Shown here one piece after another: positions 31,102 to 38,991 of a stretch of DNA of 64,000 nucleotides (position 1 is the first letter of the stretch; each line of letters begins with the position of its first letter). Source of the stretch: an uncultured bacterium (GTDB lineage Bacteria; Patescibacteriota; Minisyncoccia; Phycocordibacterales; Phycocordibacteraceae). The stretch is from contig CALFMK010000001.1 in the NCBI GenBank assembly GCA_937879955.1, positions 91,504-155,503 of the forward strand, in the 5' to 3' direction. The translations under genes and the position numbers were made by a program. A model generated the notes under the pieces. The model ran no database searches, was not told the origin of the DNA, and was given only the letters and a program-made list of their open reading frames with translations.

Positions 31102-31131
31102 GGGACCGTCATCCCGAAGGATGACGGTCCC
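31102..31131 (-). terminator. Stem-loop, probably a terminator, immediately downstream of the small peptide ORF
   Basis: A perfect 13-bp stem, GGGACCGTCATCC-CGAA-GGATGACGGTCCC. On the minus strand it is followed by a T-rich tract (ATTCATTTCC...TTCTTCTTCTGTTCTT). Confidence 0.5.
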
Positions 31132-31141
31132 ATGATTGCAG

Positions 31142-31240
31142 CTAGTGGCCGCAACCGACGCCGTCGCCGCCGTTGCCGCAGCCGCCGTCCCCGTCGCAGC
31201 CGCCATTGCCGCCGCGGAAGCTCATCTTACCGTAGGACAT
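31142..31240 (-). CDS. Candidate 32-aa Gly/Cys/Asp-rich peptide reading MSYGKMSFRGGNGGCDGDGGCGNGGDGVGCGH. It is not in the ORF track.
   Basis: A perfect Shine-Dalgarno sequence, AAGGAGG, lies 5 nt upstream of the ATG. A TAG stop is followed 10 nt later by the 13-bp hairpin. It sits in an AT-rich island between the HK and the S9 peptidase. The GC-rich repeat codons in the other frames give the tracked 60-aa artefact ORFs. Confidence 0.4.
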   Translation of the reverse strand: MSYGKMSFRGGNGGCDGDGGCGNGGDGVGCGH

Positions 31241-31617
31241 TTCTGCCTCCTTAGTTTACTGTCATCGCCAATCGACAACAGCAGGTACAACCGCAGAAGG
31301 TCTGCGGCTGTTGATTAGAACCTGTCGGGCTCGCAGGGCAAGTCGTTGACCGGTTCGATGGGTCGATACCCATTCTCTTCAGGATGGTCCATTGGAGAAA
31401 TGGGTCGTTGGTGCTTATCAAAGATCATTTATAGCTCCTTTTGGCACGGTTTGGACTCAAAATGAGTGCCAAATTTGACCTATAAATTAGAATCCTTGCT
31501 AAAGGGGAGAAGAAAGGATTCTTGTCTGCGAGGACAATACACCACCTATATGATGAAAAGATGAGATAAAGATAAAATTTTCCTGGATTTCTTAGACTAG
31601 ACCTAACCTCCCATCTT

Positions 31618-33261
31618 CTAGATTGGAAGCTCGACGGTGAACTTGGAACCCTTGTCAGCGCCTGCGGACTCCGCGCGGACCGTGCCGCCATGGGCCTCGA
31701 TGATGTTCTTCACGATGTAGAGCCCGAAGCCGGTGGACTCGACGTTGATCTTCGTGGAATTCGCGCCGTGCCCGCCCTCGGTGAAGAGATGTTCCATATC
31801 TTCCTTCGTGATGCCGACGCCCGTGTCCTCGACGACGAAACGGACCGTCTTGCCGTCCTGCGCGAGCGAGACCTTCACCTGCCCTTTCGGCGTGTACTTG
31901 ATGGAGTTGTCGATGATGTTCTTGAGCGCGTTCATGAGCTGGCCCTTGTCGCCCGGATACATGACCGGCGCGGCGCCGAGATCAAGGATCAGGGCGAGAC
32001 CCTTCGCGTCCGCCGCTGCCTTGAGGTCAAGGATGATCTCCTCGATGAGCTGCTTCAGGTCGAACGGCTCCTTCCGGTATTCCACCTTGCCGCTCTTGAT
32101 GTTCGCGGCGTTCAGGATCTCCTGAATGGTGGCGATGCCCTTCGTGTCGGACCGGAAGCCTTCCTCGACCATAGGCTTCATGGGCTCGGGAATCGGGCCG
32201 AAATCACCCTCCTTTATGAGCGAGAATATGTTGCGCGATTTCGTCACGAAGCCCTTGATCTGGTGCGTGATGAAGTGGATGAGCGTCACCTGCTGGCGGT
32301 TCGAGACCTGGAGCTGCGCGGCGAGCTGCTCGATCTCCGTGCGCTGCTGCACCTCGTGCTTGAAGGTCCGTATGAGGGTGTAGCCGAGTATGGCGAGGAA
32401 GACGAGCGTCACGACGACGATCCAGCGGACAATGGAGATGTTCTGGATGAAGAGGATGCTGAACACGGCGAGCCAGAGGCCGATGACGAGCACCTGGGCG
32501 GCCATGGTCTGGCTCCTGCCGACGAACTTCGCCTGGATCACGAAGTACGAGAGTGCGCCGATCGTGACCGGAATCACGAACAGGCCGTACTGGCCGATCG
32601 CCCAGTCCTCGGAGAAGCTGCCGATGATGTTCCCGGACGAAAAGCCGAGCAGGAGGACGAGCGAGGTCCCTGCGACGAGGAGAATCGGCGCCTTCTGCAT
32701 GGCGGCCTTCCTCCCGAGCCATGAGCTGAAGGCTATGCCGATGATCCAGAGCACATAGAGGATCTCGATAAGGTAGTTGTAATACGCGAGCGGACCCTCG
32801 ATCACCTCGCGATCACAGTCGGTCAGGTTGAACCCGATGATGTTCCAGTGCGTTGCCGTGAGCGCGATGGTCGGCAGGAGCGGGAGCACGATAAGGAGCT
32901 TCGTCTTCCAGGACACGTCGTTCCCGGTCATGAACACGAGCACGAAGTACACGAATCCGGCGTAGATGATCGGCTCGATCATGTTCACGAGGGACCAGGC
33001 GAACACCACGGTGCGGAGGCTATCGGTCGCCCAGAGGATGAGGTCGAGGAGGAGCCAGGTGCTGAGGGTAAGCGCGATGAAGAGCAGCACCTTGTTCAGG
33101 AGCGACCTCCGGTTCGCGAAGTATATGAAGAACCCGAAGATGAGCGAGACCAGCACCGGCGTGAGATGCGAGTAATAGATGAGCGGCGAGAAGACGTTCT
33201 CCGAGAAGAAGACGAGCGGGCTCGTGCCCCATTCGCATGCGGCTATCATTCCTTCGATCAT
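31618..33261 (-). CDS. Sensor histidine kinase with a multi-TM N-terminal sensor domain (8-9 TM). No cognate response regulator is nearby.
   Basis: 547 aa. The N-terminal 320 aa are polytopic. A HisKA-like H-box (FITHQIKGF) is present. The HATPase_c N, G1 and G2 boxes read NALKNIIDNSIKYT, EDTGVGI and GFGLYIVKNIIEAHGG. Confidence 0.85.
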   Translation of the reverse strand: MIEGMIAACEWGTSPLVFFSENVFSPLIYYSHLTPVLVSLIFGFFIYFANRRSLLNKVLLFIALTLSTWLLLDLILWATDSLRTVVFAWSLVNMIEPIIYAGFVYFVLVFMTGNDVSWKTKLLIVLPLLPTIALTATHWNIIGFNLTDCDREVIEGPLAYYNYLIEILYVLWIIGIAFSSWLGRKAAMQKAPILLVAGTSLVLLLGFSSGNIIGSFSEDWAIGQYGLFVIPVTIGALSYFVIQAKFVGRSQTMAAQVLVIGLWLAVFSILFIQNISIVRWIVVVTLVFLAILGYTLIRTFKHEVQQRTEIEQLAAQLQVSNRQQVTLIHFITHQIKGFVTKSRNIFSLIKEGDFGPIPEPMKPMVEEGFRSDTKGIATIQEILNAANIKSGKVEYRKEPFDLKQLIEEIILDLKAAADAKGLALILDLGAAPVMYPGDKGQLMNALKNIIDNSIKYTPKGQVKVSLAQDGKTVRFVVEDTGVGITKEDMEHLFTEGGHGANSTKINVESTGFGLYIVKNIIEAHGGTVRAESAGADKGSKFTVELPI

Positions 33262-33458
33262 AGGTAGTCGACGAATAGCGGGAACTCGCTCTGGATGACC
33301 TCCCCTATCTGCTCCTCATCGGTGAAGACCAGGAAGTCGCGGTTCAGGTACGCGTTGTAATAGGTGTACGCCGCCGCGAGGATCACGAGTATCCCGGTCA
33401 CGGCGAACGGATCGATATGGATGCCCCTAGCCTTTTCCATGCTTGGATAATACCTCAC
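33258..33458 (-). CDS. Small membrane protein translationally coupled to the histidine kinase
   Basis: 66 aa, with a probable start at MEKARG and one TM helix (FAVTGILVILAAAYTYY). Its TGA stop overlaps the HK ATG, giving an ATGA overlap. Confidence 0.45.
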   Translation of the reverse strand: MRYYPSMEKARGIHIDPFAVTGILVILAAAYTYYNAYLNRDFLVFTDEEQIGEVIQSEFPLFVDYL

Positions 33459-33933
33459 GCTCGTACGCTTTCTGGAAATGCTTCGGGATAAAGGGCAGGT
33501 AGGATTTATATACCTCTACCGGGAGCGTCTGTACGGGGCCGACGAACCGGCGGACGCCCGGTCCGTCCGGCTCGAACGTCTCGAAGCAGTAGTCAGGATC
33601 CTCCTCGGTCGTGGAGTAGTCGAACGTAATCTCCTCACCTGCTTTTAGGTCGCGGAGCGCGTGAAGCGTGAGCTTCCGGCTCCCCTTCAGGCCTGCGGTT
33701 GGGTTGCAGGAGTGGTTCAGGTACTGGAATTCGTCGATTGGATCGATCCAGGTATCCTTCCCGATCCCGATCCAGTCACCATAGCGGTTGCTCTGGCCGA
33801 AGATGGTCGGCTCGTAGCGCACCTTCGAGCCGCGGAGCTCCGCGATGAACTGCCCTTTCTTGAGCGGCTGTCGCGTAAAGACGCCGTAGCCGTGTATCGG
33901 GCTCTTAAGGACTGCGAGTGATGCCTTTTTCAT
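33427..33933 (-). CDS. SET-domain protein, a putative protein-lysine methyltransferase
   Basis: The internal start is MKKASLAVLKSPIHGYGVF and is preceded by AGGAGA. SET motifs GxG, YLNHSCNPT (NHSC) and ITFDY are present. The tracked ORF carries 23 extra N-terminal residues. Confidence 0.7.
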   Translation of the reverse strand: MKKASLAVLKSPIHGYGVFTRQPLKKGQFIAELRGSKVRYEPTIFGQSNRYGDWIGIGKDTWIDPIDEFQYLNHSCNPTAGLKGSRKLTLHALRDLKAGEEITFDYSTTEEDPDYCFETFEPDGPGVRRFVGPVQTLPVEVYKSYLPFIPKHFQKAYEREVLSKHGKG

Positions 33934-34045
33934 GTAGGTCTCCTGACGAATGAGAATGCCGAGAGTTATGGCAATTGTGGCACATCTGCACAGGTGTGAC
34001 AAAAGGTGCTATGGGAAAAGAAAACGCCCCTGGTCCATTGCTGGA

Positions 34046-34711
34046 TCAGGGGCGCGCGAGGGAGGCCTTGCCTGGCGGGGTGCGCCAGGCAAGGAAGCCC
34101 ATGAGGCCGTGAAGGATCGCGTTGCTCACGGGGTAGACCATGAGCACCGTCGCGAACCCGTGCTCGGCGAACGTGACGCAGCCGAGCAGGCAGTAGGCGG
34201 TACACCAGACCGACCACGGAAGCGGGTGCTCCCCTTCGGGATTCTTCCAGGTCTCGGCGACCATCGGAACGAAGGAGACCACCGTGCTCACGTTGGTGAG
34301 GATCAGGAACGCCAGGGTCAGGACGTCGCGGGTCTCTTGCGAGATGCGCTCGTCGTTGCTGGCGTACCATACGATCGCATACGCGACCGTCAGGCTCAGG
34401 TCGATGGATATCGCAATCCGCGACAGCAGCTCTTTCGGCCACTTGAACTGCCCTTTCGAGCAGCAGATCGCGGCGACGCGAAGGCTCAGGATCGCGCAGG
34501 TGATCGGCAGGATGAAGATCTTGAAGTTCCCTTCGAGATCCCAACCGACCGTGGCGAGCTCGAGCACGGTGAGCGTCGCGGTGCCGTACGCGAACATGAA
34601 CCAGGTCGTCGGATTCGGATTCACTTCGTTGCGAAGCGACTTCCGGATGTAGATCAGATATCCCAGGGCCTGCAGCAGGCCCGAGAACATCGCCAGATAG
34701 ACAACGCCCAT
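34046..34711 (-). CDS. Polytopic membrane protein with 6-7 TM segments, hypothetical
   Basis: 221 aa. It has a strong AAGGAGG Shine-Dalgarno sequence and an upstream TTGCAT-17-TATGGT promoter. It lies 113 nt upstream of the SET-domain gene. Confidence 0.65.
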   Translation of the reverse strand: MGVVYLAMFSGLLQALGYLIYIRKSLRNEVNPNPTTWFMFAYGTATLTVLELATVGWDLEGNFKIFILPITCAILSLRVAAICCSKGQFKWPKELLSRIAISIDLSLTVAYAIVWYASNDERISQETRDVLTLAFLILTNVSTVVSFVPMVAETWKNPEGEHPLPWSVWCTAYCLLGCVTFAEHGFATVLMVYPVSNAILHGLMGFLAWRTPPGKASLARP

Positions 34712-34782
34712 AGCGGACCTCCTTCAATTCCTTGAAAAGACCGGGGAGCAATCGACGGGACTAGCCCGTTTGCTCTCTAGAT

Positions 34783-34811
34783 ACCATACCACACCTATTT
34801 AAAATATGCAA
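34783..34811 (-). promoter_or_regulatory. Sigma70-like promoter for the membrane-protein and SET genes
   Basis: On the minus strand the sequence reads TTGCAT, a 17-nt spacer, then TATGGT. It is followed about 60 nt later by the AAGGAGG Shine-Dalgarno sequence and the ATG. Confidence 0.4.
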
Positions 34812-34884
34812 CCCCCGCGATACCTGTTCAAGGCTGCGGGGGTTATGTGAAAGCGAGCGCGTTCTGCGCTCGCCATAAAAGAGC

Positions 34885-35094
34885 CTATTTTAAGGGTATT
34901 CTCGCCTCAGATATGAGCAGGATAACCACTATGAAAGACGCTAATCCTTGAAAGAATGAACGGTCGAGCGCACGATTCCAGTTCCTCTGAGTGAACCACT
35001 GGTGCGCGAAGTGGCCGATGCCGATGACCGTCCATGGAAAAAACACGATAACCAATAGCATGCACATCTCCCTCGTACGCATCCAGTAAAGCAT
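34885..35094 (-). CDS. Small membrane protein, hypothetical. This is a weak call.
   Basis: 69 aa with two hydrophobic segments and lower GC content. It lies 52 nt downstream of lysS. Confidence 0.3.
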   Translation of the reverse strand: MLYWMRTREMCMLLVIVFFPWTVIGIGHFAHQWFTQRNWNRALDRSFFQGLASFIVVILLISEARIPLK

Positions 35095-38484: not shown

Positions 38485-38991
38485 TTATCGCGTCGTGAGG
38501 TAGGTTCCCGCGAGCGGCGCGAGGAACCACCAGAAGAAGTACTGGTCCGGTGCGAACAAGGCGTCCAAGGATGGCGAGAGCGGGATCACGGCCGCGATGT
38601 TGAGGACGTGGTACCCGAGCGCGAGCACGAACCCGCCTGTCACGAGCGCGAGGATGGCAAGAGCCAGCGGATGGATGCGCATCGTGCCTGCGGACGCCAC
38701 GCGACGGAGCAGGACATACGGGAAGAATGTGAATGCCGCGAAGAGCGCGATGCCGCAGACCGCGCGCACGAGCGGCGTATCCCCTACGATAACCATCTCC
38801 TTGTACGGGAAGACCGTGAAGATGGCGAAGCCCACATAGAGCGAGAGGATGAGCGATATGAGGAGCGAGCGCCCTGCCCGGAGTGCGAAGAAGAACAAGA
38901 GCGCAGCGAGCACGAGCAGCACGAGGAAGTTCCCGACGAAGCCGACGATGTCGCCAAGGCCACCGGTTGTGAACGAATTGAGTGCATCCAT
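38485..38991 (-). CDS. Membrane protein, hypothetical
   Basis: 168 aa with 5 TM segments. A TATACT -10 element sits 8 nt upstream of the ATG with no Shine-Dalgarno sequence, so the transcript is probably leaderless. It lies upstream of the ABC exporter. Confidence 0.55.
   Translation of the reverse strand: MDALNSFTTGGLGDIVGFVGNFLVLLVLAALLFFFALRAGRSLLISLILSLYVGFAIFTVFPYKEMVIVGDTPLVRAVCGIALFAAFTFFPYVLLRRVASAGTMRIHPLALAILALVTGGFVLALGYHVLNIAAVIPLSPSLDALFAPDQYFFWWFLAPLAGTYLTTR

Follow-up and report, generated by a model that had tools for sequence, protein, structure and literature searches.

The four-gene locus described here is best described as a conserved membrane module, not previously reported, that joins a SET methyltransferase, a seven-transmembrane (7-TM) protein of carrier fold and a sensor. 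It lies in a 64,000-nucleotide stretch of contig CALFMK010000001.1, from an uncultured bacterium of the Patescibacteriota, part of the candidate phyla radiation (CPR); this whole stretch is referred to as the window. The genes run head to tail on the minus strand and encode the 7-TM protein (MEM; 221 aa, 34046..34711), a SET-domain methyltransferase (168 aa, 33427..33933, ATG at 33933), a membrane protein with a single transmembrane (TM) segment (60 aa, 33258..33440, ATG at 33440) and a polytopic sensor histidine kinase (547 aa, 31618..33261). MEM and the SET enzyme are functional partners, and the most probable site of action of the enzyme is the membrane of the cell itself, not the histones of a host. 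The full text of the literature yielded no account of a SET/PQ-loop or SET/7-TM pairing, nor of SET proteins in Patescibacteria.

The partnership is apparent from gene order. A MEM profile search of the 16 CPR loci nearest to the window locates a MEM homolog directly upstream of the SET gene in 14 of them. Most of these pairs come with the small protein and the kinase, and in some cases the order of the genes is different. An earlier note on this DNA, made from the sequence, had paired the SET protein with the membrane protein and proposed both following the pair through related genomes and modelling the two together; the distribution and the fusions described below bear the pairing out. For the more distant part of the family, MEM representatives were chosen blindly for inspection of their neighbourhoods. 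Several variants of the module occur. Two loci carry MEM, SET, small protein and kinase with a divergently transcribed regulator alongside (L085/L086), one has the permuted order SET-MEM-small-kinase (L092), and one has a duplicated SET gene, in the order MEM-SET-SET-small-kinase (L095, 2194..3174). A further locus (L010) has the MEM/SET pair without a kinase.

The pair also occurs as a single protein. In Sphingomonadaceae, MEM and SET form one open reading frame (ORF) of 408-427 aa, and when one such fusion was used to query a database, over 120 clusters (at 90% identity) of 385-430 aa were recovered; the complete genome of Aquisediminimonas profunda (CP080327) carries one. Of ten long MEM-family representatives, eight have a SET domain at their C-terminal end, and in one of these (P0415) a single 7-TM unit is fused to two SET domains. 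Another fusion (P0302) has the C-terminal tail YLPFINPYFQKVY, as in the SET protein of the window. When the two window proteins are concatenated, the linker between the motifs LHG and IHG measures 31 residues, compared with 29 in natural fusions, and the concatenated pair is modelled with a pTM of 0.73. The MEM/SET pairs comprise roughly 150 sequences, mostly from closely related Sphingomonadales. Because MEM precedes SET in the fusions, the SET domain is placed on the cytoplasmic face just after TM7, where S-adenosylmethionine (SAM) is available.

In one contig the partner of MEM is a different kind of enzyme. A distant MEM relative is followed by a class-I methyltransferase of the NNMT/PNMT/TEMT family (E 1.3e-36), which stands in the place of SET (L089, 171..1731), and then by the start of a further polytopic membrane protein. 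The NNMT/PNMT/TEMT family carries out N- and S-methylation of small molecules, and its gene at this locus may be a non-homologous replacement of SET. A single-protein scan for more such neighbours of MEM yielded two loci, of which the first was too short and the second apparently chimeric, and thus none usable. A contig that looks chimeric is L091 (1..4783), in which an AT-rich, CPR-like segment with a 7-TM gene abuts a GC-rich segment with GroEL and xylose isomerase.

The SET assignment is secure. Pfam SET (PF00856) matches the 168-aa protein with an E of 9e-14 and 52.2 bits, against a cut-off of 22.4 bits, and the motifs HGYG (G15, G17), YLNHSCNPT (71-79) and ITFDY (102-106) are all present, so that the canonical core read from the sequence in the earlier note is confirmed. 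Loss of the catalytic Tyr or of the NHSC residues on careful alignment would have spoken against it; instead G15, G17, N73, H74, S75 and Y106 are invariant in 30 SET homologs, and the same six residues are invariant in 49 fused or concatenated sequences. Foldseek assigns the fold with a probability of 1.00 to MLL1, NSD1, ASH1L, BurB and vSET, and a profile of the family finds MLL1 (3e-21) and BurB (2.8e-13) in the PDB. The protein has no hydrophobic segment, no signal peptide and no TM segment, in keeping with the cytoplasmic location first proposed for it.

Two features set the window subfamily apart. The C-terminal tail, YLPFIPxxFQKxY, is conserved, and the three post-SET zinc cysteines (CxCx4C; SET residues 113-130) have been lost in the window protein and in the close Paceibacteria subfamily, where this region reads FE-TFE-PDGPGVRR. 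CxCx4C is still present in the fusions of Sphingomonadales and in CPR relatives at a greater distance. The Cys of NHSC is kept in the close Paceibacteria subfamily. The close homologs carry the names Candidatus Paceibacterota or Minisyncoccia. In species-representative genomes, at least 539 relatives were confirmed, from CPR, DPANN, Chloroflexi, Proteobacteria and others, and SET genes in free-living bacteria are already listed in reviews (PMC3980110); the view that SET methyltransferases are rare in bacteria therefore does not hold. Short SET homologs of Anaerolineales adjoin a Ser/Thr-kinase protein with PD40 repeats and have no 7-TM neighbour (L036, L052, L054-L056, L058, L063-L065, L067, L075 and L078); this adjacency may reflect either lineage synteny or a different partner.

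MEM is less easily placed. It has no sequence-family match in Pfam, NCBIfam, PADLOC or the PDB; Pfam finds nothing in 44 members of the family even at E 1, PQ-loop and MtN3 included, and a PDB sequence search finds nothing at E 10. An exhaustive profile search puts the family at 627 representative clusters. A model built from the 44-sequence alignment (pLDDT 89.9) has seven helices, in agreement with the 7-TM-like protein recognised earlier, and it is through fold search alone that the predicted structure is recognised as the 3+1+3 seven-TM arrangement of the PQ-loop/SWEET superfamily, to which MEM is assigned on this modelled fold. With regard to a possible internal duplication of a triple-helix bundle, comparison of TM1-3 with TM5-7 by hhalign gives an E of 1.7e-4 with a probability of 49.5%, over 70 columns in register, and pairs the loop motifs NPNPTTW and EHPLPW. 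Loops rich in Lys and Arg follow TM1, TM3 and TM5 and recur at the C-terminus, and this positive-inside pattern indicates that the N-terminus lies outside and the C-terminus inside.

The family alignment shows a strongly conserved membrane core. Q14, W37, F40, Y42, D104, N140, E161, W166, W169, Y173 and H201 are invariant and membrane-embedded, and together they look like a ligand site; there is no invariant lysine in this alignment that could act as a methyl acceptor. In two MEM-family proteins (P0293 and P0287, the latter L084 6001..7254) SET is replaced by a CHASE4-like region together with an additional TM segment. Both lie near a transposase and HWE kinases, and could be rearranged genes.

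The remaining two genes encode the small protein and the sensor kinase. The kinase gene comes directly downstream of SET in 14 of the 16 CPR loci, separated from it almost always by the gene of the small TM protein. The small ORF has 14 homologs in this position, in 13 loci, and L085, L092 and L095 contain additional ones that are not aligned; the protein has no match in Pfam, NCBIfam or PADLOC, and Lys or Arg residues occur in the short N-terminal segment of its family. One locus has two tandem small-protein and kinase pairs (L013, 6471..10158). The kinase itself has a HATPase_c domain (8e-26) preceded by an N-terminal domain with about 8-10 hydrophobic or TM segments, whose residues 1-320 have no Pfam match even at E 10. 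The phospho-acceptor H (THQ) and the N (N..dN..KYT), G1 (DtG.G) and G2 (tG.GLY) boxes are kept in 15 homologs, two conserved Cys lie in the polytopic N-terminal domain of the family, and Pfam HisKA is called in relatives, not in the window kinase. The PADLOC defence models match none of MEM, SET and the small protein, and match the kinase through its ATPase domain alone.

The description of the kinase as an orphan stands for the window, since no receiver domain was found in its 64 kb by tblastn with CheY, OmpR and Spo0F, nor in the flanks of close CPR loci. It does not extend to the whole kinase family, because the four-gene module of L085/L086 adjoins a divergently transcribed response regulator of 118-121 aa that consists of a receiver only (L085, 3567..6925). 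In Sphingomonadales the sensor is of another type: a CHASE4-GGDEF-EAL gene is the divergent neighbour of the fusion in 4/4 assessable loci, down to 54% identity. As the kinase in CPR, the CHASE4-GGDEF-EAL protein in Sphingomonadales and the CHASE4-like extension all recur, the methylation unit is found linked, in case after case, to membrane signalling proteins whose types of output are unrelated.

The transcription signals of the locus in the window may not be those of a simple operon. Two stable hairpins (34809..34874, minus strand; fold -42.3 kcal/mol, z -5.3) terminate the upstream LysRS/ORF69 unit, so the MEM gene opens a new transcription unit. Its Shine-Dalgarno sequence, AAGGAGG, is as first reported (34718..34724, minus strand), 6 nt ahead of the ATG. 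The strong promoter that had been ascribed to the gene was not recovered: a consensus scan finds none upstream of MEM, and by eye TTGCAT-17-TATGGT matches at 8/12 consensus positions. The spacer between MEM and SET measures 112 nt, in place of the 113 nt given before. It is spanned in part by a terminator- or attenuator-like hairpin over the MEM stop codon, followed by a U-run (34015..34055, minus strand; fold -24.7 kcal/mol, z -4.25), which escaped a pattern-based terminator scan and was recovered by folding. Before the SET gene, within the 112-nt spacer, there is a promoter-like site, TTGTCA-17-CACAAT with an upstream TG (33974..34002, minus strand), which the consensus scan scores at 9/12; this is a consensus match only, for CPR promoters are uncharacterised. 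Judging from the hairpin with its U-run and from this site, MEM and SET may be expressed in this genome as separate or attenuated transcripts and not as a simple operon. Downstream, the coding regions of SET, the small protein and the kinase overlap successively. The start of the small ORF is read as overlapping the SET stop by 14 nt, and its own stop overlaps the kinase start in an ATGA, the coupling noted previously. Rfam has no match in or near the locus.

The mechanism that accounts best for these data, which we put somewhat short of an even chance, is that a carrier-type MEM docks the SET enzyme, the SET enzyme methylates the cationic solute that MEM transports, and the sensor encoded next to them follows the process. 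What MEM would carry, or bind as a receptor, is a small solute, probably a cation such as an amine or amino acid; the known substrates of proteins with its carrier fold include basic amino acids, cystine, sugars and nicotinamide riboside. The SET domain would be docked at the cytoplasmic mouth of MEM, where it would use SAM to methylate solute arriving at the cytoplasmic side. Methylation would serve either to retain a compound that has been imported or to generate a methylated one that is then exported. The co-encoded kinase, or in Sphingomonadales the CHASE4-GGDEF-EAL protein, would take the carrier or its solute as input signal. It is a familiar arrangement for a sensor to rely on a transporter as its co-sensor, and such co-sensing would account for both the kinase and the GGDEF-EAL neighbours, so that no common protein target is needed. 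Taken further, the MEM/SET pair would be a previously unrecognised machine for transport-coupled ('vectorial') methylation, in which a PQ-loop-type carrier hands a small cationic metabolite straight to SET; we regard this stronger version as a tentative possibility.

That a SET enzyme can act on a free amino acid is established by BurB, which makes S-methylmethionine from methionine (PMC12542666). BurB and the window SET family share a DY(S/A)(T/S)TE.D segment, which lines the BurB substrate site. From this precedent, the NNMT-type neighbour, the invariant aromatic and acidic residues of MEM and the lack of an invariant MEM lysine, a small-molecule substrate is inferred.

A number of points weigh against this mechanism. 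The best sequence and structure matches of SET are protein-lysine methyltransferases (MLL1, ASH1L, NSD), and the top structural match of MEM is the KDEL receptor, a receptor and not a carrier. MEM has neither a Pfam PQ-loop or MtN3 match nor the PQ dipeptide, its TM1 having LQ. In the window a hairpin with a U-run stands between the two genes. The combination of MEM with an NNMT-type methyltransferase is a single case, on a single 2-kb contig.

The principal alternative, possible but placed below small-molecule methylation, is a membrane-anchored protein-lysine methyltransferase. MEM would then be a ligand-binding receptor or an anchor that positions and perhaps gates SET, and SET would methylate a membrane-proximal protein, tuning a sensor as CheR does with chemoreceptors; the targets would be the small TM protein or the kinase in CPR and the CHASE4-GGDEF-EAL protein in Sphingomonadales. 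All canonical lysine-methyltransferase motifs are present in SET and the closest matches are MLL, ASH1L and NSD; the coding regions of SET, small TM protein and kinase overlap; membrane sensors are the repeated neighbours in two phyla; the short N-terminal segments of the small TM proteins offer Lys and Arg; and KDELR, which tops the fold matches of MEM, is a receptor. Against this, the N-terminal lysines would be expected from the positive-inside rule in any case, and the strongly conserved polar and aromatic membrane core of MEM implies more than an anchor. One MEM relative, moreover, has a small-molecule-type methyltransferase replacing SET. Small-molecule methylation is preferred to protein-lysine methylation because no homologous cytoplasmic domain is common to both types of sensor, because the pair exists without the kinase (L010), and because the MEM core looks like a ligand site. 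Neither of the two reaches an even chance; the former comes closer to it, and the latter stays tentative.

Methylation of a lipid head group is unlikely. Here MEM would present an amine lipid, such as phosphatidylethanolamine or an aminolipid, to SET at the inner leaflet. The obligate tethering of SET to the membrane is consistent with this, and the wider PQ-loop clan includes proteins with lipid-linked substrates, but no lipid-metabolism genes recur beside the module in the loci inspected, no SET enzymes that methylate lipids are known, and the nearest fold matches of MEM are solute carriers or receptors.

Very unlikely is incidental synteny in a compact genome, with a ribosomal protein, a nucleoid protein or some other unrelated soluble molecule as the target of SET. 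None of the results points to the ribosomal, nucleoid or pilin substrates that the earlier note suggested. CPR genomes are indeed compact and syntenic, and the terminator-like hairpin splits the MEM and SET genes in the window. This explanation is disfavoured above all because of the MEM-SET fusions, which arose independently in several lineages; the pair also survives permutation of gene order and is present in a different phylum.

Least probable of all, and likewise very unlikely, is a secreted, host-directed histone methyltransferase in the style of Legionella or Chlamydia effectors, the framing adopted at first: SET domains of some pathogens do act so (PMC3980110, PMC2904774) and CPR bacteria live attached to other cells, but the window SET has no signal peptide or TM segment, its gene sits in a core syntenic locus beside DnaJ and tRNA synthetases, the domain is fused to the cytoplasmic end of a 7-TM inner-membrane protein in free-living Sphingomonadales, and no secretion genes are found among the neighbours (type III/IV signals not scored).

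These results bear on how bacterial SET domains are viewed, since SET domains have been studied almost entirely as histone or protein methyltransferases and those of bacteria are generally interpreted as effectors aimed at a host. In the present case the enzyme is retained at a core locus by bacteria that have no histones and whose genomes measure roughly 0.6-1 Mb (the longest contigs reach about 0.59-0.74 Mb, and one complete genome has 1.05 Mb). As it is bound there by gene order, and in other bacteria by fusion, to a transporter-fold protein and a sensor, the evidence points to an endogenous role located at the membrane, possibly on a small molecule. If the transport-coupled mechanism is true, SET chemistry would reach beyond proteins as a widespread, membrane-integrated function, and in CPR bacteria the machine would be wired to a dedicated sensor kinase as a core device for processing nutrients or signals. 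The module also gives a first functional handle on two uncharacterised families, the 7-TM family of MEM and the polytopic kinases of CPR bacteria, and the fused form in A. profunda may make the hypothesis testable in culture without a CPR organism.

The surroundings of the module in the window include several small genes. Downstream of the kinase lies a Gly/Cys-rich ORF of 32 aa, MSYGKMSFRGGNGGCDGDGGCGNGGDGVGCGH (31142..31240, minus strand), with its own AAGGAGG site and followed by a terminator with a 13-bp stem (31102..31131); it could be a small secreted or metal-binding peptide. As a candidate signal for the kinase within the module it was rejected and left outside, because it occurs only in this genome and in a near-identical contig. 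Between the kinase stop and this gene are ~375 nt of AT-rich non-coding DNA (31241..31617) that have no Rfam match, and the 2-kb block around them has 52% GC compared with about 62% elsewhere. On the other side, between LysRS and the MEM gene, there is a 69-aa ORF with two hydrophobic segments (34885..35094, minus strand), which matches no family and has been seen in no other genome. A further neighbour, encoded beside DnaJ, is a 4-TM protein with the C-terminal sequence FFWW(F/L)LAP (38485..38991, minus strand). It is found upstream of the module in several CPR genomes (L013, L017, L091 and L092); in the window it is separated from the module by the insertion of an ABC transporter and LysRS.

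Among known systems, Trithorax/MLL-type and minimal (vSET-like) lysine methyltransferases have the GxG, NHSC and ELxFDY motifs and the SET fold in common with the window enzyme. The latter differs from MLL-type enzymes in having no histone context and, in its subfamily, no post-SET CxCx4C zinc site, in its conserved extra C-terminal tail, and in its obligate partnership or fusion with a 7-TM protein. The secreted SET nucleomodulins of the NUE and RomA type are marked by a secretion signal or system and a eukaryotic host target; the window enzyme has no hydrophobic N-terminus and no secretion genes among its neighbours. BurB is the SET methionine S-methyltransferase of Burkholderia (PDB 9L4T/9L4V, PMC12542666); at 172 aa it is close in size to the window SET, and in both proteins the SET core is followed by a C-terminal helical segment. 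Unlike the window protein, BurB is soluble, keeps the zinc cysteines and has LLHSC rather than LNHSC, and no membrane partner is described for it in PMC12542666. Nothing in the sequence evidence supports methionine as the substrate of the window SET. Since BurB has the same SET core as the protein methyltransferases, the two classes of substrate are probably not separable at the level of sequence.

With regard to the module as a whole, kinases that co-sense with a transporter and the CheR-chemoreceptor systems resemble it in that a membrane sensor is co-encoded with a transporter-like protein and a methyltransferase; CheR is a class I methyltransferase and not homologous to SET, and the module has no chemoreceptor. 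Within the PQ-loop/SWEET/KDEL-receptor superfamily, which includes cystinosin, PQLC2-type basic amino-acid exporters and SWEETs, MEM stands out by its own loop motifs, NPNPTTW and PExEHPLPW, and we know of no member coupled to a methyltransferase. A further parallel to the arrangement proposed here is an analogy only, as the proteins are not homologous: in PnuC-NadR and other pairs of a carrier and a modifying enzyme, a SWEET-like carrier is teamed with an enzyme in the cytoplasm that acts chemically on the solute brought in, by phosphorylation in that case and, in MEM/SET, putatively by methylation.

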